Shown here piece after piece: positions 47,645 to 62,959 of a stretch of DNA of 64,000 bases (positions within the stretch are counted from its first letter, which is position 1; each line of letters begins with the position of its first letter). The notes below the pieces were generated by a model. It did no database searches. It saw only the letters and a program-made list of their open reading frames with translations, and was not told the DNA's origin. Position numbers and translations under genes: made by a program. The stretch is from Bacteroidales bacterium (GTDB taxonomy: Bacteria; Bacteroidota; Bacteroidia; Bacteroidales; UBA3663), in assembly GCA_045627865.1 (NCBI GenBank), contig JAZQOK010000028.1, forward strand, positions 33,653 through 97,652, written 5' to 3'.

Positions 47645-48226
47645 ATGTCTTTCGATTTCCAGGAATTTCTTTCAGCATTTATTGTCATCTTCGCTATGAT
47701 TGACGTGACAGGACTTACGCCAGTGGTCATTGACCTCCAGCAGAAGTCCGGTCCGGTCAATGCGGTTAAAGCTGCGCTCTATTCTCTGATCGTCTTAGTT
47801 GCATTTCTCTTTGCCGGAAGTACGATTCTTGATCTTTTCAACGTAGATATTCATTCGTTTGCAGCTGCCGGTGGTGTCGTCATCTTCCTGATGGGACTTG
47901 AGATGACACTCGGTCGTGAGATATTCCGTTATAGCGATGGACCCCAAGGCTCAACGACCATCGTGCCGGTTGTCTTTCCGCTCATTGCAGGTGCCGGTAC
48001 CTTTACCGCACTCCTCTCCCTTCGTGCTGAATATAGCATTATGAATATTCTTTTGGCTCTGGCCTTGAATATCCTCATTGTTTATATAGTATTACGCAAC
48101 GTCCGCGCTCTTGAACGAGTGCTCGGGCAGGGCGGCATCTATGTCCTTCGCAAGTTCTTCGGTATCATTCTTCTCGCCATTGCCGTGAAGTTGTTTACCA
48201 GCAACATTGCCTATTTACTCTCATAA
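47645..48226 (+). CDS. MarC family membrane protein
   Basis: 6 TM segments; VPVVFPLIAGAG; RKFFGIILLAIAV. Confidence 0.88.
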   Translation: MSFDFQEFLSAFIVIFAMIDVTGLTPVVIDLQQKSGPVNAVKAALYSLIVLVAFLFAGSTILDLFNVDIHSFAAAGGVVIFLMGLEMTLGREIFRYSDGPQGSTTIVPVVFPLIAGAGTFTALLSLRAEYSIMNILLALALNILIVYIVLRNVRALERVLGQGGIYVLRKFFGIILLAIAVKLFTSNIAYLLS

Positions 48227-48227
48227 T

Positions 48228-50105
48228 ATGAAAAAGTTTTTCTCACTCATCAGCACATTGATCATCGCCTGCAGCGCTCACGCTGTCACGGTCTACACTA
48301 TCGGTGATAGTACCATGGCCAACAAACCGACCGACAAGGACAATCAGGAACGAGGTTGGGGACAGATGCTCAGCGGATTCTTCAGCGACGATGTCGTTGT
48401 CGAAAACCATGCACTCAATGGACGTTCTTCCCTGAGTTTCTATCTCGAGGGTGAATGGCAGAAAGTATATGATAAACTCCAGCCGGGAGATTATGTGTTC
48501 ATCCAATTCGGACACAACGACGAGAAGATCAAATCAGCCCGTCGAGGCACTCGTCCAGGTTGGCCGGAACCAGCACCATGTCCAGATCAGTGGGGAGTTA
48601 CAAACGACAGCATTACCACCTCTTTCGATGGTATGCTCCGTCTCTTTGTCGAACAGACCCGTCAGAAGGGTGGCATCCCGGTTCTTTTCAATGCCATCGC
48701 ACGACGCAACTTCTTCGAAAATAAGAATGCCGCCGAAGAGGATGACCTCTTTGGTAAGGGAACAACCCAGAAGCAGGAGGGTGACACCCTGATCGAAACA
48801 CACATCATCACCCGTGCTGATGGCACTGTCGATGATTATCTCGAAGCGCCACGTCGTGTAGCCCGTGACCTCAAGGTTCCGTTTGTTGAGATGAACAAGA
48901 TCAGCAAGGAGCTCGTTCAAGGCCTGGGTATCAAGGAGAGCAAGAAACTCTTCTGTTGGATTCCTAAAGACACCAACCTGGCCGCCCCTAAAGGACGTGA
49001 AGACAATACTCACCTCCGCATTTGGGGTGCCCGTCAGATGTGCCGTGCCACCATCGACGCCATCGGAGAGGCTGTTCCTGCCCTCAAACCCTATATCCGC
49101 AAATATGATCTGGTTGTAGCCAAAGATGGTTCTGGTGATTTCTTTACGGTCCAGGAGGCAATCAATGCGGTACCTGACTATAACAGCCAGGAGCTCACTA
49201 TCCTGCTCCAGCCTGGCGTCTACAAGGAGAAGCTGGTTATCCCGGCAAGCAAGACGCATGTCACACTGATTGCCAAGACCGAAGGTCAGAGCATCATATC
49301 TTACGATGATTACGCTAACCGCATCTCCGACATTACCGGTCGCAAATTAGGGACATCAGGCAGTGCAACAGTATATATCTATGCCACCGATTTTGAGGCA
49401 CGCGGCATTGTGTTCGAAAACACCGCATCAAATGTATCCTGGGAGGCTAAAAAGAGCGGAGTCGGACAGGCTGTAGCTGCGTTGGTTTCGGGCGATAAGA
49501 TCATCTTCCGTCGCTGCAAGTTCCTCGGACATCAGGATACACTCTATGCCTACGGACGCAAATCTGATCCAAAGAGCGATGAGGCGAAGGCTGAAGCCTT
49601 GGTTAGCCAGATGCCCAAGGACCAGATGAGCCGACAGTATTACGAAGATTGTTACATCAGCGGTACGGTCGATTACATCTTTGGATGGGCAACCGCCTAT
49701 TTCAACCGATGCGAGATGCACTGCATCGGCGATGGATATGTAACCGCCTCTGCCACACCCAAGGGTCTCAACTATGGTTACATCTTCAACGAATGCCGCA
49801 TTACCACCGAACCAGGCGTCAAAGCCTATCTGGGTCGTCCTTGGCGTCATTGGGCACAAACCATCTTCCTGAATTGCCAGATGGAAAACATCCAGCCACA
49901 AGGATGGAAATCTTGGGGCAATCCTGAGACCAAAAAGACTACCGTCCGTTATGCTGAATACAACAGCAAGGATCTGCTGGGTAATCCGGTTGATACATCA
50001 CATCGTGTTGTCTGGAGCCGTCAGCTCACATCGAAGGAGGCCAGTACATTCTCTGCCCTCAATGTACTGAAAGGTGTCGATAACTGGAACCCTCAAATGC
50101 AATAA
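48228..50105 (+). CDS. Bifunctional pectin esterase: SGNH acetylesterase (CE12) fused to pectin methylesterase (CE8)
   Basis: Signal peptide from ATG 48228; GDSTMA, GWGQ, GRSS, QFGHND, DNTH; then VAKDGSGDF, QAVA, QDTLY, GTVDYIFG, YLGRPW. Confidence 0.9.
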   Translation: MKKFFSLISTLIIACSAHAVTVYTIGDSTMANKPTDKDNQERGWGQMLSGFFSDDVVVENHALNGRSSLSFYLEGEWQKVYDKLQPGDYVFIQFGHNDEKIKSARRGTRPGWPEPAPCPDQWGVTNDSITTSFDGMLRLFVEQTRQKGGIPVLFNAIARRNFFENKNAAEEDDLFGKGTTQKQEGDTLIETHIITRADGTVDDYLEAPRRVARDLKVPFVEMNKISKELVQGLGIKESKKLFCWIPKDTNLAAPKGREDNTHLRIWGARQMCRATIDAIGEAVPALKPYIRKYDLVVAKDGSGDFFTVQEAINAVPDYNSQELTILLQPGVYKEKLVIPASKTHVTLIAKTEGQSIISYDDYANRISDITGRKLGTSGSATVYIYATDFEARGIVFENTASNVSWEAKKSGVGQAVAALVSGDKIIFRRCKFLGHQDTLYAYGRKSDPKSDEAKAEALVSQMPKDQMSRQYYEDCYISGTVDYIFGWATAYFNRCEMHCIGDGYVTASATPKGLNYGYIFNECRITTEPGVKAYLGRPWRHWAQTIFLNCQMENIQPQGWKSWGNPETKKTTVRYAEYNSKDLLGNPVDTSHRVVWSRQLTSKEASTFSALNVLKGVDNWNPQMQ

Positions 50106-51289
50106 TGACTATGAAAAGAAATATTATCACCATACTCGCTGTTTTGCTTGCGACATCTGTATTTGCTGCTGAGACCAACTCTCTCCGCATGGTCAAATCC
50201 GAGATAGTGCGCAATCCCGAGGCAAAGAACATAGACTTCAACACCGTTTGGAAATGGAATTACACCCATGGTCTCCTTCTGCAGTCAATGATGATGGCCG
50301 CCGAGAAGCATCCAACCATCGAAGCAACCGTCGACCAGTATGTCAAGCAGTATCTTGATAGCATGATCATGGCCGATGGCACCATCCGAACCTACAAGAA
50401 GAGCAATTATACCCTCGATCACATCAACCCGGGCAAGATGCTCATCATGGCCTACGAGAAATATCAGGAGCCACGATTCAAAGTTGCACTTGATACCCTC
50501 TACAGCCAATTGTTGAGTCAGCCTCGTGTATCCGAAGGTGGATTCTGGCACAAGAAAGTATATCCGAACCAGATGTGGCTCGATGGCATCTATATGGAGG
50601 CACCATTCTATTGTGAGTATGCCAAACGATATCTCGATGGCGAGGCCCAGCAGAATGCCTACAACGATGTCGTCAACCAGATCATGGTCGTTGCACGTCA
50701 TACCTACGATCCCGAGTATGGACTTTATCGTCACGCTTGGAATGAAACCAAAGAGGAGGCCTGGTGCAATCCGGAGAACGGACAGTCCATGCATGTCTGG
50801 GGACGTGCCTTAGGCTGGTATTGCATGGCAATGGTCGATGTTCTGGGATACCTTCCAGAGGAGCATCCTGGCAGAGACTCCATCATCTCTATTCTGAGCC
50901 CTCTCTGCGAGAAGATCCGCAGCATGCGCGACAAAGATTATGGCATCTGGTATCAGGTTATGGATCAGGGCCAACGGAATGGAAACTACCTCGAGACCTC
51001 ATGCTCGGTAATGTTTGCCTACACTTTCGTCAAAGGTGCACAGAACGGTTGGTTGTCTGAGGACTTCCTCGAAACCGGCAAACTGGTTTATGATGATTTG
51101 AACAACTACTTCATTCGCGAAGATGGTGACGATGTCATATCCATCACTCGCGTTTGCGCAGTTGCTGGCCTTGGAGGCAAGAACTATCGTACAGGCAACT
51201 ATGAATACTATATTCATGAGCCTGTCCGCGACAATGATCCCAAGGCTGTAGGTCCATACATCATGACCTCACTCCTACTGGGAGAATGA
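50105..51289 (+). CDS. Unsaturated rhamnogalacturonyl/glucuronyl hydrolase (GH105)
   Basis: WNYTHG, LDHINPG, GGFWHK..YPNQMWLDGIYM, WGRALGW, YLETS, NDPKAVG. Confidence 0.92.
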   Translation: MTMKRNIITILAVLLATSVFAAETNSLRMVKSEIVRNPEAKNIDFNTVWKWNYTHGLLLQSMMMAAEKHPTIEATVDQYVKQYLDSMIMADGTIRTYKKSNYTLDHINPGKMLIMAYEKYQEPRFKVALDTLYSQLLSQPRVSEGGFWHKKVYPNQMWLDGIYMEAPFYCEYAKRYLDGEAQQNAYNDVVNQIMVVARHTYDPEYGLYRHAWNETKEEAWCNPENGQSMHVWGRALGWYCMAMVDVLGYLPEEHPGRDSIISILSPLCEKIRSMRDKDYGIWYQVMDQGQRNGNYLETSCSVMFAYTFVKGAQNGWLSEDFLETGKLVYDDLNNYFIREDGDDVISITRVCAVAGLGGKNYRTGNYEYYIHEPVRDNDPKAVGPYIMTSLLLGE

Positions 51290-51366
51290 TACAATATTTA
51301 AACCTCCCAGTTCTAATTCTGTCAAATAAACAAAAAGCCCAAATAAACAAAATCACTTAATCTAAT

Positions 51367-51573
51367 ATGCTTAAAGTTCTATTTGCACGTCATCGTGCCG
51401 CCTATTTCAAATTGGCTCTTAAATACTGGGTCATGCCTGGTCATGTGTACAAGCTTGCACATGGTGGTCGAGCACATGGTGGAAAAGATTCCAAGATCTG
51501 CCACGAGTTGCTTGAGATGAGAATTGTACACCGTCACCATTATTCCCAGGATCCGAACCATTATGAGATGTAA
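51367..51573 (+). CDS. Small basic, His-rich hypothetical protein (68 aa)
   Basis: ATG after an A-rich leader (CTTAATCTAAT); fills the gap and overlaps the GH97 start by 11 nt. Confidence 0.55.
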   Translation: MLKVLFARHRAAYFKLALKYWVMPGHVYKLAHGGRAHGGKDSKICHELLEMRIVHRHHYSQDPNHYEM

Positions 51574-53524
51574 GCTCCTCCTCTTCTCTGTCATTGCAGG
51601 AACTGCAACAGCACAAACCGTCAGCAGCCCTGATGGTAAGTTGTCTCTCTCGGTTCAGACCGGCGCAGAGATGACCTACTCTGTCTCGTACAACGGCCAA
51701 ACAGTTCTTAACCCTTCGTCGGTCGGACTTATTGCCAACTATGCTGATCTGGCCAAAGATCTTCGTCTAATCAAAGCAGAGATCGATACCGTGCGTAACA
51801 GCTACGACATGACACGTACCAAGTCGGCTCACAGCGACTATGTTGCGACTCGTCTGCGATGCCAGATGCAGAACCCTGAAGGATGGCCTATCGATGTAGT
51901 ATTCCAACTCTCGAACAATAATATTGCTCTCCGTTACGAAGTCAACAAACGCGAGGGCAAGGAGACCGGCAGCATCCGCGTAATGGAGGAGAAAACCGGT
52001 TTCGCCTTCACTGATGGAACAACTGCATTTGTCTGTCCTCAGAGCGATGCAATGATTGGCTGGAAACGAACCAAGCCAAGCTATGAAGAGGATTACATCT
52101 ACGATGCCCCGCTCACGACACGCAGTCAGTTCGGCCACGGCTGGACCTTCCCTTGCTTGTTCAACGTGCACGACAACCAGAACGCAAACCTCTGGTTGCT
52201 TATCAGCGAAACGGGTGTGGATAGCCGCTATTGCGCTTCCCACCTCTCAGACTTCAGTCAGAACCGCGCTACAATCGCTTTTCCAATGCCAGAAGAGAAC
52301 AACGGCAATGGAACCATCGAGCCCGCCTTCTCTTTGCCAGGTGCCACACCGTGGCGCACATTGACCATTGCCGACAACCTCGCTCCGATTGTTGAGACCA
52401 CCGTTATGTACGATGTTGTCGAGCCTCGTTATGAAACTCGGAATGAATACAAGTTCGGACGTGGTACCTGGAGTTGGATTCTCTGGCAGGACGGCTCTAT
52501 CAACTACGAAGATCAATGCAAATACATCGACCTCGCTTCGGCTATGGGCTATGAATATGTATTGGTTGACAACTGGTGGGATCTGCAGATTGGACGCAAA
52601 GAGAATCCCGTCAATGGGCACAGCATCGAGGATGTCATTCAGTACGCCCATTCCAAAAATGTGGATGTCTTCCTCTGGTATAGCTCAAGCGGCTACTGGA
52701 ACGACATTGTTCAGGGTCCAATCCATCACATGGATAACAGTATCATCCGAAAGCGCGAGATGCGCTGGATGAAAGAGATGGGTGTGAAAGGCATCAAAGT
52801 GGACTTCTTTGGCGGAGACAAACAAGAGACCATGCGTCTGTACGAAGAGATTCTTTCCGATGCCGACGATCATGGCTTGATGGTTATCTTCCATGGCTGC
52901 ACACTGCCACGCGGTTGGGAACGCATGTATCCTAATTATGTCGGCAGCGAAGCTGTGTTAGCCAGCGAAAATATCTATTTCGATCAGCGATTCTGCACCA
53001 ACGAGGCACAGAACACCTGTACACATCCATTCATCCGCAATGCCGTCGGAGCCATGGAATTCGGTGGATGCTTCATGAACCGGTATATGGATCGCTCGAA
53101 CAGCCGTCGTCATCAGCGAATCACAACCAATCTCTTTGAGCTCTGTACTACGGTCCTCTTCCAGAACCCGATCCAGAACTTTGCTCTTGCACCCAACAAT
53201 CTGACCGATGCACCAGCTATCTGTATGGATTACCTACGCGAAGTTCCAACAACCTGGGACGAAACACATCTGTTGGGCGGATATCCTGGCAAATCGGTAG
53301 CAATGGCCCGTCGTCATGGCAACAAGTGGTATATTGCAGCCATCAATGCCGACGAGACTCCTTTTGAGCTTACCATCGAACCTGCACAACTGGGAATTGA
53401 TCCTGCCACTCTCCTGCTCTATTCTGGCGGTGATAACCCGATAATTTCTGCTCCAAAAGTTAAAAAAGGCAAAATTCGACTATCTATTGCTAAACAAGAT
53501 GGCATCCTTCTTGTCACAAAATAA
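51563..53524 (+). CDS. Glycoside hydrolase family 97
   Basis: SPDGKL, SYEE, TPWR, YIDLA, GIKVDFF, FHGCTLPRGWERMYPN..EAV, PTTWDET; start set to ATG 51563. Confidence 0.92.
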   Translation: MRCKLLLFSVIAGTATAQTVSSPDGKLSLSVQTGAEMTYSVSYNGQTVLNPSSVGLIANYADLAKDLRLIKAEIDTVRNSYDMTRTKSAHSDYVATRLRCQMQNPEGWPIDVVFQLSNNNIALRYEVNKREGKETGSIRVMEEKTGFAFTDGTTAFVCPQSDAMIGWKRTKPSYEEDYIYDAPLTTRSQFGHGWTFPCLFNVHDNQNANLWLLISETGVDSRYCASHLSDFSQNRATIAFPMPEENNGNGTIEPAFSLPGATPWRTLTIADNLAPIVETTVMYDVVEPRYETRNEYKFGRGTWSWILWQDGSINYEDQCKYIDLASAMGYEYVLVDNWWDLQIGRKENPVNGHSIEDVIQYAHSKNVDVFLWYSSSGYWNDIVQGPIHHMDNSIIRKREMRWMKEMGVKGIKVDFFGGDKQETMRLYEEILSDADDHGLMVIFHGCTLPRGWERMYPNYVGSEAVLASENIYFDQRFCTNEAQNTCTHPFIRNAVGAMEFGGCFMNRYMDRSNSRRHQRITTNLFELCTTVLFQNPIQNFALAPNNLTDAPAICMDYLREVPTTWDETHLLGGYPGKSVAMARRHGNKWYIAAINADETPFELTIEPAQLGIDPATLLLYSGGDNPIISAPKVKKGKIRLSIAKQDGILLVTK

Positions 53525-54640: not shown

Positions 54641-56356
54641 ATGAAGAAATTTTTACTTCTTGTGTCTGTCGCAATGACAGCATTCTGCTCTATGTCAGCA
54701 CAAGACATTAGTCTTGTTAATGGAGGAAGCGTCGAAAAAGTTTCTGAAGATGGCCGTTATGCCGTTTTCACCAACGAAGGTACCCTCTATCTTCTCGACC
54801 TGAAGGCTACCGATGAGGACAAAAAGATTACCATCTTCGAAGCAAACGATGAGACCGGCATCCATTACAACATTGGTTTCGGACACATCTTTTCGGACGA
54901 CAACACCATGGTTGGTCAGACTACCGACAATACTCCAGCCATCCTTAAGAATGGCGAGTGGACTCTCCTTCCTGTAAAGGAGTCTGATTTGGAACCTGGC
55001 AAAATCAACAGTGCAGATGCTATCACTCCTGATGGAAGCCGTATTTGTGGTGGCATTGCTATGGATGCATTCTCAATGGATGCCAAAGAGCCAATGCTCG
55101 TTCCTGTAGTTTGGGACAAACAGGCTGATGGCACCTATGGCCAGTACACTGTTCTGCCTTATCCAAAGGCAGACTTCACCGGCGCAGTTCCTCAGTATGT
55201 TACCGCTCGTGATATGAGTGCCGATGGCAAGACCATCATCGGTCAGATTACCGACAACTCTGGTTTCTGCGTTTATCCAATCGTCTATCATCAGGATGCC
55301 GAAGGCAAATGGAGCTATGAGCTGATCCTTGCGGATAAGGTCTATGATCCAAATGGAGTGTTCGCACCATATCCTACCTATGAGCCTCAGATGCCTAATG
55401 CAGAGGATTATATGGACGAAGCAGGCATGACTGCATACGAGACAGCATCTCAGGCTTATATGGATTCTTTGATGGCTGCATATGAAACCGGAGAATGGCC
55501 ATCATACTATCCTAACCCTTCAGACTTCTTGAGTGGCGAGAACATGACTATCTACGATTCTCTCTTTAACAAATATCAGGTCGAGGACCAGGCTTATCAG
55601 GATTCTCTTAATGCCTATTTTGACAGTTATCAAGCCAATACCACCGGAGCCTCTTTCGAGTTTAACATCGCTTACCTCTCGGCCGATGGCAAATATGCTG
55701 CAATGACCTATGTTCAGCCAGGCGAATCTTTCTGGGATCCTGACCAGAATTTTGTATACCGTTACAATATTGAGACCGACGCTCTCGAGATGTGTGAGCA
55801 GGAGGGCTCTGCATCTGGCATCATGTCCGATGGCACTGTATTGTTTCATTCTTCATACAATGGAAGCATGTGGCAGCGTACCGCTCACGTAATGAACATC
55901 GGAAGTACAGAGGCGGCTCCATTAGAGGACTACATCGCAACCAAGAGCGCTAAGGCAGCTGATTTGTACAAAAAGAGTCTGACTGTCGAGATTATCGCGT
56001 TTGACCAGGAGACCTGGGAGCCACTTGAGGAGCCAGCAGACAAACTGGTACTGGGTGGTACTACCTCATGCAACCGTGATGGTTCTATCATCTGCGGCTG
56101 GACTTACAACGAAGGCAATGTAAATGCTGATTGGTATATTCTTGGTTATATCATCGACCTCACTTCGTTCGATGATTACACAAGCATCAAGACTCTTGCA
56201 GCCAACAACAAGATTACCTCAATGGTTGTTACAGACCTCAACGGTGCGGTTGTAAACACCACTGGCAGCATCAAGGACTTGAACAAGGGTACTTATCTCG
56301 TTACTACCAAGACCGCTGACGGCCAGACCAAGACCATCAAGGTTTGCAAGAAGTAA
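54641..56356 (+). CDS. Secreted beta-propeller-like protein with T9SS-type C-terminus
   Basis: Signal peptide; repeated S.DG blades (VSEDGRY, ITPDGS, MSADGK, LSADGKY, NRDGS); tail TDLNG...KGTYLV...TIKVCKK; promoter at 54535-54542. Confidence 0.75.
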   Translation: MKKFLLLVSVAMTAFCSMSAQDISLVNGGSVEKVSEDGRYAVFTNEGTLYLLDLKATDEDKKITIFEANDETGIHYNIGFGHIFSDDNTMVGQTTDNTPAILKNGEWTLLPVKESDLEPGKINSADAITPDGSRICGGIAMDAFSMDAKEPMLVPVVWDKQADGTYGQYTVLPYPKADFTGAVPQYVTARDMSADGKTIIGQITDNSGFCVYPIVYHQDAEGKWSYELILADKVYDPNGVFAPYPTYEPQMPNAEDYMDEAGMTAYETASQAYMDSLMAAYETGEWPSYYPNPSDFLSGENMTIYDSLFNKYQVEDQAYQDSLNAYFDSYQANTTGASFEFNIAYLSADGKYAAMTYVQPGESFWDPDQNFVYRYNIETDALEMCEQEGSASGIMSDGTVLFHSSYNGSMWQRTAHVMNIGSTEAAPLEDYIATKSAKAADLYKKSLTVEIIAFDQETWEPLEEPADKLVLGGTTSCNRDGSIICGWTYNEGNVNADWYILGYIIDLTSFDDYTSIKTLAANNKITSMVVTDLNGAVVNTTGSIKDLNKGTYLVTTKTADGQTKTIKVCKK

Positions 56357-56390: not shown

Positions 56391-56421
56391 GACCGGCTCT
56401 CTTTCCAGAGGGTCGGTTTTT
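56391..56421 (+). terminator. Intrinsic terminator
   Basis: ACCGGCTCT...AGGGTCGGT-TTTT downstream of the 54641-56356 gene. Confidence 0.7.
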
Positions 56422-56442: not shown

Positions 56443-56729
56443 TCGAATCTAAAACTTCGGAAGCAGCGCAACACGAGTTTTGCTCGAATCTAAAACTTCG
56501 GAAGCAACGAAACAAGAGTTTTGCTCGAATCCAAAACTTCGGAAGCAACGCAACAAGAGTTTTGCTCGAATCTAAAACTTCGGAAGCAACGCAACAAGAG
56601 TTTTGCTCGAATCCAAAACTTCGGAAGCAACGAAACAAGAGTTTTGCTCGAATCCAAAACTTCGGAAGCAACGAAACGCGAGTTTTGCTCGTTCCGAAAT
56701 TTTCGGAGGCAGCAAAACTCGCGTTTTTT
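56443..56729. repeat. 41-bp tandem repeat array (6 copies plus 1 degenerate)
   Basis: Unit TCGAATC(T/C)AAAACTTCGGAAGCAACG(C/A)AACAAGAGTTTTGC starts at 56443, 56484, 56525, 56566, 56607, 56648 and (degenerate) 56689; no spacers. Confidence 0.95.
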
Positions 56730-56748: not shown

Positions 56749-59064
56749 TTACTTAATAATCATCTTGCGGCCCTTGCGGATGTAAAGACTACCCTTGACA
56801 GGAGTCAGAACCTGATGGCCGAACAGATCATACGAAGCACGATCGACAGTATCAGAAGCAATTTGTTCAATACCAGATTCCACAGCAGAGAAGGTTACAG
56901 CAATCTTCACATTAGCCTTAATCAAATCGATAGTATAAGTGTTATCAACGACATCCGCTGTTACATCTTTACTATTTACCGTTACCTTCGCTAATTTATA
57001 GCCTTCATTTGGAGTGACAGTCAAGACAACCGAACTGCCATACTGAGGTTTGGTATTACTTACATTAGCTGTACCACCGTTACCTGTAGATAAGGTAACA
57101 GAGTAGGTATTGATCGTAAAGCTACCATTAACCTCCAAATCATGAGCAGGCATTACGCTTGCGCTCCAACCGGAGAAGGTATAACCCTCCTTGGTAGGAT
57201 TAGCAATTGATAGGGCTGTTCCAGACAAGACACTATCTGTAGCATAGACTTCGCCATCCACCTTGTATGTTACTTTGTAATACTGCTGGCGGAATTCTGT
57301 ACCATCAGCAGTCAAGACCGGTACACGCTTAGCGTTGGCAATGTAGCCATTATTGTCAATAACAAGCACATTGGCGAAAATCTTGTTATACTGGAGAGCA
57401 TTTACCAAAGTGGCTTTAGTTGGCATTGTAAGGGTATATTCCGAAGCTGCTGTATTGCCTGCCACCTGCTGATCGGCAGTAAAGGCTGGCACCGTGCTCT
57501 TTCCACTCACATAACTGCTTGCAATCATTACATCGTTAAATGTCAGTAAGACTGATGACTGGCCATACTTGCCACCCTTGCAGAAATAAGAGAGTTCAGG
57601 CATGTCGTCCAAGACACCGGCAGAAGCAGTTGTTGCAGAATAAAAATAATTAGACTGCTTCCATGCAGTTGTGGTACCACGCAGACTATCAGCAGTAAGA
57701 ACGAATGCTATAGTATAGCCATTTACATTGGTGAGGAACTCCGTGTTCGACTTAACCGTCACATTCAGGTCATTATCGATAATAGCCTCAGCTGCTGTAA
57801 TGTCAACCAAAGGGGTTGAAGTATTATAAGCATCAAGGCAGTTTAGAATACCCTCCTGGCCCTCACCGAAATATGGATCTGGGAAAGTCTTACGATCAAC
57901 GCAGCACTGTGGAGCGCCATCAAACGGAAGGGATGCGTATGCAGACGCATACATTGGGTCACTGGAATTATATTTGTGCCATGCAATGACCAAAGCATTA
58001 TCAGCACGTTTCTCCTTCACGGCCTCCATGCCGACCCAACCACGTGGACAGTAACCACATCCAGTACCCGTATATTCCTCGATAACACTAACGCGTGGTA
58101 CAATGTGAGTTAAAGTTATGAAAGCAAACTCCGAAGCAGCATTGCCGGCTTCATTCTCAACACCATTAACGGTATTGATGGCAATCGTGGCAGAGAAAGA
58201 ACCAATGGTATTAGGTGCATCAAACTCAATCGAAGCATAGCCAGACTTCAACAGACCTGCAGGAATAGGAGTCTCCATCGTACATGTGCCTGTGGTCTCT
58301 ACTCCATTTACATTCATAGTATAGCCGAAGTTCTTAATCTCATTCTTGCTATCAGAACCGAGCGAAACCAAAACGGTTGCCTTACCGCCCATAGCACAAG
58401 CGTCGGCATACAGGCCATTAATCACAAGAGAGTTCTCAGGCAAAACCATACCATCCACAAATATCTGGAGAGCAGAAACACCAAACTGAGAAGAATAATC
58501 GTCGAAAGCAGCAGTTGCCGAAGTAGCCAGATAAAGGCCTCCAGTGCTCATATTCGTTTGGGTAGTAGCAATAGGATATTGGTCATCCTGTGTAGTTGCA
58601 GTACTAACAGTAAAGGTATAGCCGACATAAAGGCCCTGAGCTGGAATAGTAACAGGAGTATCAAGTTCCACCTTGTTGTAGCCTACAGCAACACTGGCAA
58701 CACTCTTTGAGAATGCTTCTGAAGAACCCAAAGAAGAACCACCCCAAACAGATACTGCAGAAGACTTAGCAGAAATGATTGGCAAATTCACGGCAGTGAT
58801 CTTGGCTCCTTGCAAAACGCCATTACCTGGAACAAAGATTGCAACACGGAAAGTTCCTTTTGATCCAGTACCCAAACCATAGATATCGTTACCGAAATCA
58901 CCTAAATAATACCCCCAAAGGTCTTCAGTTTCGGCAACAGCAGCAGGTGCCTTTGCTACATTGTCCTTGAGCATCAGATTGCGGTTCATTTTGAACTCGC
59001 TCTGAGCCATAGCTGCCAATGACATCATTGCAGTCACGGCAAGAATAAAAAATCTCTTCATCAA
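56749..59064 (-). CDS. Omp28-related thioredoxin-fold secreted protein with InlB-B/Ig-like repeats and T9SS-type C-terminus
   Basis: Signal peptide; IEEYTGTGCGYCPRG; PTKEGYTFSGW; tail SYDLFGH...LYIRKGRKMIIK. Confidence 0.85.
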   Translation of the reverse strand: MMKRFFILAVTAMMSLAAMAQSEFKMNRNLMLKDNVAKAPAAVAETEDLWGYYLGDFGNDIYGLGTGSKGTFRVAIFVPGNGVLQGAKITAVNLPIISAKSSAVSVWGGSSLGSSEAFSKSVASVAVGYNKVELDTPVTIPAQGLYVGYTFTVSTATTQDDQYPIATTQTNMSTGGLYLATSATAAFDDYSSQFGVSALQIFVDGMVLPENSLVINGLYADACAMGGKATVLVSLGSDSKNEIKNFGYTMNVNGVETTGTCTMETPIPAGLLKSGYASIEFDAPNTIGSFSATIAINTVNGVENEAGNAASEFAFITLTHIVPRVSVIEEYTGTGCGYCPRGWVGMEAVKEKRADNALVIAWHKYNSSDPMYASAYASLPFDGAPQCCVDRKTFPDPYFGEGQEGILNCLDAYNTSTPLVDITAAEAIIDNDLNVTVKSNTEFLTNVNGYTIAFVLTADSLRGTTTAWKQSNYFYSATTASAGVLDDMPELSYFCKGGKYGQSSVLLTFNDVMIASSYVSGKSTVPAFTADQQVAGNTAASEYTLTMPTKATLVNALQYNKIFANVLVIDNNGYIANAKRVPVLTADGTEFRQQYYKVTYKVDGEVYATDSVLSGTALSIANPTKEGYTFSGWSASVMPAHDLEVNGSFTINTYSVTLSTGNGGTANVSNTKPQYGSSVVLTVTPNEGYKLAKVTVNSKDVTADVVDNTYTIDLIKANVKIAVTFSAVESGIEQIASDTVDRASYDLFGHQVLTPVKGSLYIRKGRKMIIK

Positions 59065-59093
59065 ATAGAATATTAATTAATAAACAGAATGAT

Positions 59094-59699
59094 TTACTTT
59101 ACAACAACCTTGCGAACAGAGCCATCACTCATCATCTGAAGAAGAATACCCTTCTGACCAGCAACAGCCTTCTGACCGAGCATTGTATAGGCTGATTCCA
59201 CCTTAACAGCATTGAGTACAGACTTCAGTTTAGTCGGATTGTTTGAATAAATGACTGTTACCTTGTCTCCTGCCACACCATTGGCATAGATGGTAAATTC
59301 AATAACGCACTCGGCCTGTGAAGGAGCGTCCTTCTCAAAATCATAGCAAGACCATTCGGTAGCAGCAGACTTGGTCTCACCTGCAGCAACACTAACAGTT
59401 CCTGTTTCGTTGATGCCAGTTTGCTCATACATGAAACAATTGCCAGCAAAGCACTGCTGAACCTGAGTATTGGCTGGCAAAGTCATGACATTGACTCCCA
59501 ACTTGACCGATACAGCCTCTGCGCCCTTATTCTTAACCGAAGGAGATGGGAAAACAACCTCACCATCCTCTGGTATACCTACAATAGTCATGGTCTCGCC
59601 ATTGGCATATTCCTTACCAGCAGGATCAACCATTACCACTTGGGCAAAAGTACTTGCAGCCATCAAAGCTGCTACAAAAAGTGTAAAAGTTTTCTTCAT
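59094..59699 (-). CDS. Small secreted beta-rich (Ig-like) protein with CxxGxC motif and T9SS-type C-terminus
   Basis: Signal peptide; QQCFAGNCF; tail AYTMLGQK...GSVRKVVVK. Confidence 0.75.
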   Translation of the reverse strand: MKKTFTLFVAALMAASTFAQVVMVDPAGKEYANGETMTIVGIPEDGEVVFPSPSVKNKGAEAVSVKLGVNVMTLPANTQVQQCFAGNCFMYEQTGINETGTVSVAAGETKSAATEWSCYDFEKDAPSQAECVIEFTIYANGVAGDKVTVIYSNNPTKLKSVLNAVKVESAYTMLGQKAVAGQKGILLQMMSDGSVRKVVVK

Positions 59700-59723
59700 A
59701 TAATATTATTAAGTTGTTTTCGC

Positions 59724-60527
59724 TTAGTTGTTGATTACCACATTCGTCTGCTCAGCCTGTAAAACGCCACTCTCATCATAGACGAATACAATGGCATGCA
59801 TATCGGCAGGTTTCCAGTAATCCTGGGCATCGATGCTCCAAGTGAGAAGACTCTCTGTTTTGCCAAAATTGATATCCTCACCCCACAGACCATTCATGGT
59901 AGAACGGAACACATGATTGTGAACATATTCCCTATTTGTCTTGTTGTCTGGCATCTGCTGTCTGGCAACAATATTATCCTCAGTCAACCATACCTGCACC
60001 TTGGCACTCTTTCCATCGGTAGCAGAAAGAGTGGCTGCTACAGTAATCTTGCACGAGACACTATCGTATTTGGCGTCCAACGCGATATTCACATCGGTTG
60101 TCAGCTGTATAGCCGAAGCGACAACCATTGGCCAATTGGTATAATCGTTGGTAGCCTCACCTCGATTGATCATTGCGACCGGCTGACCCTGGCTGTTTGA
60201 GAACCAATGATTCCAGTATTCTTTTCCATCGTCGGTCATCAAACCAGTCGCCGGATTGGTATTGGCAATGCCAAATGGACCACAATGGATGGCGACCGGG
60301 ATAACATTATCGCCATAAGCCTCTGGTTCCTGCATTTTGTGGATGACCTCAGTTGCCAATGGACAGTTAATACATTTCTGTCCGGTAAAATCCTCGATCA
60401 GAACCTTACGACTTGCCTCTACGGGTGCCACATAAACCAAACGTTCCTCCTCCGATATTTCAGAGCAGGCGACTGCAGCAAGTAACAATGGGACAAACCA
60501 GAAATTAAAAAATCTATTCTTCATCAT
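59724..60527 (-). CDS. Omp28 family outer-membrane lipoprotein (thioredoxin fold)
   Basis: Lipobox AVAC followed by acidic SEISEEE; LIEDFTGQKCINCP; YVHNHVFR. Confidence 0.88.
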   Translation of the reverse strand: MMKNRFFNFWFVPLLLAAVACSEISEEERLVYVAPVEASRKVLIEDFTGQKCINCPLATEVIHKMQEPEAYGDNVIPVAIHCGPFGIANTNPATGLMTDDGKEYWNHWFSNSQGQPVAMINRGEATNDYTNWPMVVASAIQLTTDVNIALDAKYDSVSCKITVAATLSATDGKSAKVQVWLTEDNIVARQQMPDNKTNREYVHNHVFRSTMNGLWGEDINFGKTESLLTWSIDAQDYWKPADMHAIVFVYDESGVLQAEQTNVVINN

Positions 60528-62174
60528 TTAGAAACTGTAGTTATAGTTGATGGTCAATCCCTTCGAAGCAGGTACATAACGGCAAACGCCACCCGTACAG
60601 TTGTATCCGGCACGTGTACGTCCGAAACTCAACATGACACGATGGGCATCGTAGTTATAGGTAGCTGCAACGTTATAGTAATGGGTCAAATCTCCATACT
60701 CACCTGGTGTGGGTTCTGTATGACCAATCTGATCGCTTACCGACACCATAAAATGTGGAGCCATCGAAAGTTCCAACAATCCGAAATACCAGTCACCGCT
60801 CTCATGCTCGGTGGTCAGATACTGCAACTCTCCACGCAATGAATACTTACGGTTGAATTTGTATTTACCCTCAGTAATAAAGATATTGCTATAGATGTTG
60901 CCGCCCTCGTTCTGAATGACACCCTTGTTATACTGCTGGTACATGTAGAGGAAATGCATCTCGTAGCTCTTGCTGAAACGGGCATCATATTGCAGGTTGA
61001 AATCCTGGTAGAAGATGTCGCCCGTCTTGAAGAAGTCATTTTCGACACCATCACTACCACGCTCGCCCTTGCTGAGATTGTTCTCTAGCCCCTTCACCAA
61101 CGAGTAGTTGAGTTTCAACTTATGCTTGCGGTTGAAGGTGTAACCCACCTGACCCTGATAGGCCCACTCGCCCTCCATCTGGGTTGCGTATGGGTAAAGA
61201 GCAGCCAAGGCATAGGTATGGTCAAGCGTGAAGGCTGGCAAATGGTTGATATAACCTGCCGAACACAATGGACTTGAAGTACGAACCGAACGGAACGACA
61301 TATTCTCCGAACGCTTGGCCTGCGCCAGCAACGAAAGACCACCCTGTGTATAGGTCATCGAAAGCATCGAGACTGTTCCCTTACCGTAGTTGTAGTTGTT
61401 GAGCGAGTTCGGATCCTGACTCTTCTGTGCATATTCGGCCAAAAGCGAGAGCCCCTCGAACTGATATTGCAGACGCATATCGAAAGCATTCACGAACTCC
61501 GGTACCTTCAGGCGGTAGTTGATCATATCGGCTGCGATGTCGGTGTCTGCCTTTTCGTACTTGTTTACCCACGAAGCACCAAGACTCAGGTAATGGCCCT
61601 TCTCAGACATGGCATCGCACCAGTCATTGATCGAGAGATCCAGATCAGCACCCGAAACGACAGACTCCTTGTCCCACGACCAATAGCGACGCTGCAGACC
61701 ACTCAAGGCCTTGATCGAGACACCCTTCAGCGGCTGAATAGCCAGACGGGCACCCAACAGGGAATTGTCGACGCCCAATGAACGCTGTTCGTAGGTACGG
61801 AGAATGAAACCCGAACCGAACTGCTCATAGAAAGTGCCGAGAGTCAGGTTGACCTTACCCAAACGACCCTTGACCCAGAAGTTTGGCAGGCCCCAGCCCT
61901 TGAACTTGTTGTAAGGATCGTTGAAGCCAGGCATTGGCCATTGGGTCAATTCAAAGCGGGCTCCGAAATCAAGGTGCTCGCTCTGTCCGAGGAACTCTGC
62001 ATAAGTGTTGGTGAGGAACGACTTGTTGTCGTATGAGTCGGCATAAGCGCCGATGGCCTCATCCACCTGCGGAGCAACCATCATATCGCTCTGCACAGAG
62101 CCTGAGATGTTGATCTCAGCCAAGGCTGTGGCAGCAAAGGCCGACAAAGCAGCCAGTGTAATGCTCTTCCTCAT
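60528..62174 (-). CDS. DUF6029-type outer-membrane beta-barrel with C-terminal CxxGxC
   Basis: Signal peptide from ATG 62174; YEQFGSG..LR.YE.R.LG.DN; amphipathic strands; GYNCTGGVCRYVP; terminal YNYSF. Confidence 0.8.
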   Translation of the reverse strand: MRKSITLAALSAFAATALAEINISGSVQSDMMVAPQVDEAIGAYADSYDNKSFLTNTYAEFLGQSEHLDFGARFELTQWPMPGFNDPYNKFKGWGLPNFWVKGRLGKVNLTLGTFYEQFGSGFILRTYEQRSLGVDNSLLGARLAIQPLKGVSIKALSGLQRRYWSWDKESVVSGADLDLSINDWCDAMSEKGHYLSLGASWVNKYEKADTDIAADMINYRLKVPEFVNAFDMRLQYQFEGLSLLAEYAQKSQDPNSLNNYNYGKGTVSMLSMTYTQGGLSLLAQAKRSENMSFRSVRTSSPLCSAGYINHLPAFTLDHTYALAALYPYATQMEGEWAYQGQVGYTFNRKHKLKLNYSLVKGLENNLSKGERGSDGVENDFFKTGDIFYQDFNLQYDARFSKSYEMHFLYMYQQYNKGVIQNEGGNIYSNIFITEGKYKFNRKYSLRGELQYLTTEHESGDWYFGLLELSMAPHFMVSVSDQIGHTEPTPGEYGDLTHYYNVAATYNYDAHRVMLSFGRTRAGYNCTGGVCRYVPASKGLTINYNYSF

Positions 62175-62662
62175 TATTTCTTGCCCTTCTTGCACTTACG
62201 AACTGCTTCGATGATCTCCTCCTCACCGCCATCGGTGTAACCGGTGTGGCGATAAACGATATTACCATTACCATCGATGACAGCAACGAATGGGATGCTC
62301 TGAATACCAAAGGCACGCTTAACGTCGCCCTGTGCATCGAGCAGAACTTCATATTCCCAACCTTCCTGAGCTACAAGAGGCTTAACCTTCTGTACATTCT
62401 GAGCTTCGTCGCAGCTGATAGCTACAAGACGTACACCCTCCTTTTTCCAATCATCATAAACCTCTGCGATGGCGTTAAGCTCGCGACGGCAAGGCTTGCA
62501 CCAGGTAGCAAAGAAATCGACGATGACAGGCTGACCATGAGTACCGATGGTATCAACGGCAACACTTTTACCATTGATATCCTTCAGAACAGTCTTAGGC
62601 ATCTGGGCAAAAGAAGTAGAACACACAATAACCAAAAACAATGTAAAAATCAGTTTCTTCAT
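62174..62662 (-). CDS. TlpA-family thiol:disulfide oxidoreductase
   Basis: Signal peptide; DFFATWCKPCRREL; SIP cis-Pro loop; promoter TATTTTTG at 62712-62719. Confidence 0.92.
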   Translation of the reverse strand: MKKLIFTLFLVIVCSTSFAQMPKTVLKDINGKSVAVDTIGTHGQPVIVDFFATWCKPCRRELNAIAEVYDDWKKEGVRLVAISCDEAQNVQKVKPLVAQEGWEYEVLLDAQGDVKRAFGIQSIPFVAVIDGNGNIVYRHTGYTDGGEEEIIEAVRKCKKGKK

Positions 62663-62959
62663 AATAATGAAACAATCAGTTATTTATTATTTAGCAATTT
62701 ATTTTAACGCGCAAAAATAGTTATAAATTCTCTTTTATTTACGTAATGATGCAAAATTCTATCATAATTAGTCCTAAAAAGAGGCACAATCGCCGAAGTT
62801 GCGAACTTTGTATTACATCTATTTTTTTGCTATAGTGAGATAACAATTGGTTATATTGTTATGCAATGGATACTATTTATAGATGAAGAAATTTGGAAAT
62901 AATGCGTAATTCCTGTAATTTTGCATCTGTTAAATCTATAACCGAAACAACAAACCTAT

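Follow-up and report, generated by a model that had tools for sequence, protein, structure and literature searches.

A conserved DUF6029 barrel module of Bacteroidota as a candidate thiol-disulfide route across the outer membrane

The locus and its five genes

The window considered here, that is, the whole stretch of 64,000 nucleotides that was analysed, comes from a Bacteroidales bacterium of the UBA3663 lineage (GenBank assembly GCA_045627865.1, contig JAZQOK010000028.1, positions 33,653 to 97,652 of the forward strand), whose genome is 87% complete. It holds an operon for a TlpA/ResA-type reductase, an outer-membrane barrel of the DUF6029 family, an Omp28-family lipoprotein, a PorA homologue and a large secreted thioredoxin-fold protein (Table 1). 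An earlier note on this DNA had described five co-directional, tightly coupled genes, each with a cysteine pair in its product, and had proposed that they form a thiol-disulfide relay across the outer membrane. The five minus-strand reading frames were found with the limits and motifs that it gave, and the junctions, in gene order, measure -1 nt (a TAATG overlap), 0 (an abutting TAA-ATG), 24 nt and 32 nt, the first two as it had reported. Comparison across the phylum places these genes in a module that is real, widely conserved and undescribed, and that may bring reducing power to the cell surface. The DUF6029 gene, both Omp28-like genes and the sole PorA-like gene of the genome all lie in this one locus, and the operon grouping is therefore not a matter of chance; six other thioredoxin-fold matches lie elsewhere in the genome.

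Table 1. Coordinates of the operon and associated elements in the window (signal peptides were read by eye; aa, amino acids; T9SS, type IX secretion system)
Feature	Position	Strand	Remarks
Gene 1, TlpA/ResA-type thiol-disulfide reductase	62174..62662	-	162 aa; WCKPC, C55/C58; likely periplasmic
Gene 2, DUF6029 outer-membrane barrel	60528..62174	-	548 aa from the ATG in TAATG; CTGGVC, C526/C531
CxxGxC hairpin codons (C526, C531)	60582..60599	-	predicted last outward loop of the barrel, from alignment and model
Gene 3, Omp28-family lipoprotein	59724..60527	-	267 aa; lipid Cys21; CINC, C52/C55; likely surface exposed
Gene 4, PorA homologue	59094..59699	-	201 aa; CFAGNC, C83/C88; beta-sandwich; short T9SS-type tail
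Gene 5, secreted Omp28/HBP35-like thioredoxin-fold protein	56749..59061	-	770 aa; CGYC, C335/C338; InlB-type repeats; short T9SS-type tail
Possible Bacteroidetes-type -7 promoter element TATTTTTG	62712..62719	-	TAnnTTTG pattern match only; about 50 nt upstream of tlpA

Homologues were sought in a phylum sample of 401 genomes and in 14 named control genomes; related genomes are not independent, and the co-occurrence counts given below are descriptions rather than significance tests. DUF6029 was found in 104 of the 401 genomes and in none of the 14 controls. About 14 kb around the barrel were taken from 80 of the 103 other DUF6029 genomes, which constitute the 80 loci referred to throughout, while the 23 genomes left out are weak-scoring members of one family, 10 others of which were included. 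The genes are syntenic across these 80 loci and across 14 close relatives. Among the latter, all five components are present in eight, four are cut by contig ends and two have four of the five; the eight complete relatives comprise three with the exact order, one with an inserted gene, one with a swap, one in which genes 4 and 5 are fused and two with the large gene (gene 5) upstream.

A PorA-like gene is present in 31 of the 80 loci, and TlpA, Omp28-like and PorA-like genes occur together in 26. The earlier note had held that thioredoxin-fold and other Cys motifs alternate strictly along the operon and that the products step outward in gene order. This stands for the first three genes and fails at gene 4, which is optional and often found upstream of the barrel on the opposite strand; the gene orders in other loci and close relatives led us to reject strict alternation as a general rule. 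On strong comparative evidence, namely co-occurrence and synteny, the core of TlpA, barrel and surface thioredoxin is well supported as a functional unit, and the strict five-step chain of the original proposal is weaker. Gene 5 and especially gene 4 are accessory to the module.

The DUF6029 barrel and its TlpA partner

Gene 2 matches the whole DUF6029 model (PF19494) over residues 9-548, above the curated cut-off (E 5.9e-157, 524 bits). The family forms 970 clusters at E 1e-30, and a protein atlas search with the barrel returned DUF6029 clusters only. The CTGGVC motif sits 18 residues before the terminal Phe. In an alignment of 77 barrels with 14-37% identity to that of the window (one near-duplicate, two broken frames and one short call having been left out), the Cys pair is invariant, as it is in all 150 best representatives (150/150); it is found in 78 of the 80 loci, the two misses being broken frames. 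The two other cysteines of the window's barrel recur in 2 and 1 of the 77 rows. Loss of the Cys pairs among homologues or absence of synteny would have told against the relay first proposed, and the comparisons showed neither. The two DUF6029 frames that break (loci L060 and L094) do so shortly before the Cys hairpin, and N bases at that place in L060 make an assembly error possible. Matches of a barrel loop to RecA were dismissed as repeats of one 32-residue chance match.

The barrel was modelled with AlphaFold2 on the 77-row alignment, with a predicted local distance difference test score (pLDDT) of 90 and a predicted template modelling score of 0.89. In the model, 24 membrane strands were counted over mature residues 3-528, with no separate plug domain to be seen. 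The Cys hairpin is predicted to consist of strands 504-508 and 511-515 (mature numbering), with the two cysteines facing each other across a two-residue turn, and by strand alternation it would form the last outward loop, between strands 23 and 24. Conservation is concentrated in two of the outward loops: of the 32 columns conserved at 75% or more, 7 fall in loop 3 and 5 in loop 12.

The nearest solved folds of the barrel are the FimD and PapC pores (about 10% identity), closely followed by generic porins and MtrB. The literature cited here and below was consulted in excerpts. In one such excerpt, a role for DUF6029 as a polysaccharide export porin was suggested from the similarity of Wzi-barrel homologues to this family (PMC9603273). 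We regard this role as extremely unlikely, as Wzi stands 29th among the folds (Z 12.3, root-mean-square deviation (rmsd) 6.4, 290 residues aligned), below ushers and generic porins, and the conserved neighbours are thiol proteins (the unlabelled neighbours were not annotated for OPX genes).

Gene 1 matches PDB 2m72 (E 3e-51) and belongs by family matches to AhpC-TSA/Redoxin; the redoxin fold and the WCxxC of TlpA/ResA are present, with scores under the cut-offs of the named TlpA/ResA models. A TlpA profile was built from the syntenic TlpAs and run over the same 401 genomes, where its scores fell into two groups, at least 153 bits in 104 genomes and no more than 130 bits in the remaining 297. 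Those 104, of which 36 had not contributed to the training set, coincide exactly with the genomes that have DUF6029, and in some of them tlpA no longer lies near the barrel; this TlpA and the barrel have therefore been gained and lost together. The tlpA gene lies within 1.5 kb upstream of the barrel in 72 of the 80 loci, and WCxPC is present in all 72 syntenic copies that were counted for the motif, a set to which the window's own copy belongs.

Probable surface partners behind the barrel

Gene 3 matches Omp28 (PF11551, E 2e-37), the model NF033782 (E 4e-79, 265.7 bits against a cut-off of 150) and the Omp28 structure PDB 2r2c. Acidic residues come after its lipid Cys. The lipid Cys and the CxxC are invariant in 30 of 30 aligned Omp28 lipoproteins; between positions +2 and +7 each of these has from one to three acidic residues, and 22 of them have two or more (no control set was scored); such residues after the lipid Cys presumably resemble the Bacteroidota surface export signal. 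An Omp28-like gene comes next downstream of the barrel in 45 of the 80 loci and is found anywhere in the ~14-kb stretch in 57. In 13 further loci, from a distant clade, the gene next after the barrel encodes an AhpC/TSA-type CxxC thioredoxin of CPHC type, which is a lipoprotein, T9SS cargo or both. Counted together, 58 of the 80 loci have a gene for a surface-directed thioredoxin-fold protein next after the barrel. Since the Omp28-like protein is replaced by an AhpC/TSA-type one with sorting signals and CxxC kept, the client family changes and the rule of a surface-sorted thioredoxin behind the barrel stays.

At the level of genomes, 69 of the 78 Omp28-positive ones have the barrel, the other nine being weak, more distant matches, and the 35 barrel genomes without an Omp28 match belong mostly to the clade with the substitute thioredoxin. 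Loci L098-L110 form a clade with CTSGIC as the barrel motif, where a lipoprotein and a T9SS cargo protein, both of them AhpC/TSA thioredoxins of CPHC type, are the outer partners. Selenocysteine was considered, as gene 3 and 22 of 42 neighbours weakly match an Omp28-related selenoprotein model, and was rejected: 150 of 150 barrels carry Cys, no replacement by selenocysteine was seen in the barrel and no paper on it was found. Antibody matches to gene 3 were set aside as chance.

The same observations bear on an alternative in which nothing crosses the membrane. TlpA would then be a dedicated maturation or maintenance reductase that keeps the barrel Cys pair correct or reduced, and the surface thioredoxins would be co-regulated partners whose redox state is set at another point, for instance prior to export; variants of this view are a redox gate, the isomerisation of a structural disulfide and a metal site such as Cu(I). 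TlpA/ResA proteins reduce Cys sites of cofactor-binding clients, a one-to-one occurrence of TlpA and barrel fits a dedicated maturation factor equally well, and in five genomes of one family the PorA-like gene has remained next to tlpA now that the two are separated from the barrel gene, a hint that TlpA acts on cargo directly. What such local chemistry leaves unexplained is the surface-sorted thioredoxin gene behind the barrel in 58 of 80 loci, drawn from another family in 13 of them, and the near confinement of strong Omp28 matches to barrel genomes; moreover, the 77-row barrel alignment has no column of His or Met that is conserved to 75%. On balance, we find it rather unlikely.

Gene 5 has InlB-type repeats and a weak Omp28 match. 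Like gene 4, it misses the T9SS sorting domain (TIGR04183/PF18962), and both end in a short tail common to 35 of 4728 open reading frames of the genome, against a null of 5 in 6729 internal positions. Homologues of the two proteins match the sorting domain in 41 of 42 cases (non-lipoprotein thioredoxin-fold neighbours) and in 27 of 38; the 42 were picked as likely carriers of the C-terminal domain, so that 41 of 42 is not an unbiased rate. The sole miss among the 42 is gene 5 of the window, and all 42 align on CxxC. SprA is present in the genome of the window and in 68 of 80 barrel genomes at E 1e-30; the five of the 12 misses that were re-tested all have a diverged full-length copy. A profile of gene-5-like proteins matches HBP35 (PG0616) of Porphyromonas gingivalis (E 1e-8, over 1-289), a surface protein with Cys-dependent thioredoxin activity for which the excerpt of PMC2907840 states no electron donor.

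Gene 4 is a PorA homologue. The earlier note had seen a small beta-rich protein with CFAGNC, and the beta-sandwich with its Cys pair on a hairpin agrees with that description; the homology to PorA had not been recognised. No Pfam family matched it, and a protein atlas search with it gave nothing informative. A profile made from the neighbours of other barrels, the window's protein excluded, matches gene 4 at E 2e-7, and the family profile matches the PorA N-domain 6kjk at E 3.8e-5. The model of gene 4 (pLDDT 92.5) has 6kjk as its top match both in Foldseek (E 1.4e-8) and in VIA-align (Z 14.6, rmsd 2.4, 127 aligned; next Z 10.4), and the fold matches listed for it do not include an nDsbD-like Ig domain. 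The excerpt of PMC7712824 describes PorA as confined to Porphyromonas, a narrower range than that of the PorA-like domains counted below. Its C-terminal domain is reported to activate PorXY signalling (PMC12152298); gene 4 ends in a short, divergent tail.

The PorA-like protein is probably a client or hub that the system can do without, and not an obligatory link. In five genomes of one family its gene adjoins tlpA away from the barrel, twice as a lipoprotein gene, and staying there it appears tied to the system without being required; the two lipoproteins (L139:2651-3175 and L142:3069-3593) lack a T9SS tail. PorA-like domains were also seen as tandem copies within a single protein or joined to the thioredoxin domain of an Omp28 protein (L072:6866-9836, minus strand; L116:8452-10761, plus strand; L124:2476-3603; L125:8570-9703), and the fusions are a further link between genes 4 and 5. 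The invariance of the PorA-like cysteines in the alignments is partly built in, because the seeds were chosen by Cys motif. A redox role for the PorA N-terminal domain, which the fullest form of the relay would imply, seems doubtful to us.

Another alternative is attractive because PorA reaches the surface without T9SS (PMC7712824). In it, the usher-sized barrel is an export pore for the PorA-like protein and the Omp28 lipoprotein, TlpA serves as a periplasmic chaperone or gate and the Cys pairs are structural. Against this, HBP35 is not displayed at the surface without T9SS (PMC7712824), and the secreted partners in our loci carry the T9SS signal (41/42) in barrel genomes that have SprA. Moreover, 57 of the 104 barrel genomes are without a PorA-like match, the barrel model has no plug or usher periplasmic domains, and the ~10% identity to ushers may reflect strand number only. 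An export pore also leaves the invariant Cys pair and the catalytic CxxC motifs unexplained, and we consider it quite unlikely.

The proposed route, related systems and flanking features

The reading that we favour, with a little better than even confidence, is that thiol-disulfide exchange within the module moves reducing power across the outer membrane, from DsbD to TlpA, to the hairpin and to the surface thioredoxins. DsbD would reduce the dedicated TlpA, which, entering the wide barrel from its periplasmic side, would in turn reduce the invariant Cys hairpin; the hairpin would then hand electrons to thioredoxin-fold proteins on the cell surface, where Omp28 and HBP35-like proteins could be kept active against oxidation or on outside substrates. 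DsbD is present in the genome of the window (a sole match, on another contig) and in 55 of 55 barrel genomes tested, and no DsbD_TM domain was matched by the five operon proteins in a Pfam scan. At one locus, a DsbD gene (L032:5908-7968, minus strand) was seen 29 nt behind the DUF6029 gene; this fourteenth thioredoxin-type neighbour is not counted among the 13 substitute thioredoxins. We infer every contact and transfer step, as well as which way the electrons flow, what the flow is for and that the hairpin folds into the lumen. Of the readings that explain the invariant Cys pair in the membrane together with the dedicated reductase inside and the exchangeable thioredoxin outside, such a relay is the simplest. 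In its fullest form, many Bacteroidota would have a thiol electron wire from the cytoplasm to the surface, with DsbD, a dedicated TlpA that docks in the 24-strand barrel, a Cys hairpin that swings, and lipoprotein and T9SS-sorted thioredoxins as its parts, and here we see the chances as evenly balanced.

Several observations weigh against the relay. Hairpin disulfides in outer loops of barrels are often structural, and by the modelled topology the hairpin would lie outside. The co-occurrence counts overstate significance because kin are not independent. Ten of the 80 loci have no Omp28-like or downstream thioredoxin gene in the ~14-kb stretch, one of them being cut by a contig end. DsbD also occurs in 9 to 10 of the 14 controls, and its presence is permissive only because it is common in bacteria at large. 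Most of the remaining points concern gene 4, whose frequent place upstream of the barrel on the opposite strand weakens the five-step chain in particular. PorA-like domains occur in 54 of the 401 genomes, 47 with the barrel (of 104) and seven without it; the Cys pair is retained in those seven, and its spacing varies from 2 to 10 residues. The nearest folds of gene 4 include a pilus adhesin and those of the barrel a pilus usher, which fits an export pore. In P. gingivalis, the four Cys of PorA are not involved in PorXY activation, according to the excerpt of PMC12152298.

The architecture is symmetric in principle, and the relay could also run in reverse, taking electrons from surface proteins for oxidative folding or disulfide repair outside, or from outside thiols. 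The outer partners of one clade carry CPHC, which we take to be a DsbA-type motif. HBP35 complemented an E. coli dsbA mutant (cited in PMC2907840), so that oxidising chemistry is possible and the direction proposed above loses some weight. The inner partner has, however, the ResA/TlpA reductase signature WCxPC, and DsbD is present, whereas DsbB and VKOR were not found in the 87% complete genome of the window. A reverse flow is very unlikely in our estimation.

The relay logic proposed for the outward flow is the same as in DsbD, CcdA and ScsB. In DsbD, a thioredoxin-fold CxxC passes electrons to a membrane-held Cys pair and on to a thioredoxin fold on the far side. These systems use a helical inner-membrane domain, whereas an outer-membrane beta-barrel, separate proteins and a short Cys hairpin are found here, and no link in sequence or fold was found. 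The architecture proposed for the module is that of MtrABC of Shewanella, where a very large plug-less barrel stands between a periplasmic carrier and a surface partner; MtrB (6r2q_B) is among the fold matches of the barrel (Z 14.0, rmsd 5.3, 399 aligned, about 9% identity). MtrABC uses multiheme cytochromes, whereas the module would use dithiol exchange, and the five proteins have no heme-binding CxxCH and no cytochrome family in their family scans. The FimD/PapC ushers share the 24-strand barrel size of gene 2, but their plug, periplasmic domains and chaperone gene are without counterpart in the module, and no usher Pfam family was among the matches of the 77 barrels. In pneumococcus, the CcdA-Etrx-MsrAB2 system feeds surface thioredoxin lipoproteins from inside against outside oxidation (PMC3914529); it belongs to a one-membrane organism with neither outer membrane nor barrel, and no Msr partner was seen in the module. 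HBP35 is, like gene 5, a T9SS-sorted surface protein with a thioredoxin motif, and would be a candidate client rather than a pathway.

The operon is likely the counterpart of PG2175-PG2172 of P. gingivalis, since gene 3 matches Omp28, gene 4 matches PorA and the order of tags agrees; this had escaped the earlier note. There, PG2175 is a thioredoxin-domain protein, PG2173 is Omp28 and PG2172 is PorA (PMC13744359), while PG2174, presumably the DUF6029 protein, is listed as 'uncharacterized' (PMC4335976). The accession after that of PG2175 was labelled DUF5723 (PMC12937337), which does not fit DUF6029, and DUF5723 was matched by none of the 77 barrels. The P. gingivalis genes have the same order and kinds of product as the operon and were studied singly, not as a module. 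Two further leads were dropped. Paraprevotella clara 00502, 'Omp28-related' in PMC9477747, consists of WD40 and Ig domains, and no annotation in the part of the supplements searched ties 00503-00508 to the module. The list of outer-membrane vesicle proteins found with H2O2 only (Omp28, Q7MT24, Q7MT25; PMC12937337) was not counted, as Omp28 belongs to the core vesicle proteome (PMC13744359) and the accession mapping is presumptive.

No description of the module or of an outer-membrane thiol relay was found in the literature searched, which covered open-access papers and few subscription journals; DUF6029 appeared in one work. To our knowledge, known thiol relays stop in the periplasm and known outer-membrane electron paths use hemes. 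Bacteroidota display active thioredoxins outside, and the module is a concrete candidate for their recycling; if the relay holds, no dithiol conduit through an outer membrane would be known before it, and HBP35-type surface thioredoxins would have their missing electron source. DUF6029 thereby gains a testable function, for which single Cys mutants in genetically tractable species are pointed to. How PorA reaches the surface independently of T9SS has had no explanation, and the module is a candidate for this as well; either reading, relay or export pore, would be new biology.

Upstream of tlpA, the sequence TAnnTTTG, taken here as the Bacteroidetes-type -7 consensus, has 64 matches in the window against 37 by chance, which makes the single match in Table 1 weak; no -33 element at the usual spacing was seen by eye next to it, and a sigma-70 promoter scan gave nothing above chance. 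At the other end of the operon, the gap between gene 5 and its convergent neighbour holds about seven tandem copies of a 41-bp unit (56443-56727); sequences related to them occur at 28 places in the genome, resembling an intergenic REP-type repeat. The product of this neighbour (54641-56356, plus strand) is a secreted protein of 571 aa that has propeller-like repeats and matches a T9SS domain weakly, and proteins of similar look come after the operon in locus L112. Behind this gene, a strong terminator-like hairpin (56391-56418, plus strand) may also end the operon transcript from the other side. Farther away (48207-53524, plus strand), genes were recognised by eye that resemble a pectin esterase fusion, an unsaturated rhamnogalacturonyl hydrolase and a GH97-type glycosidase.

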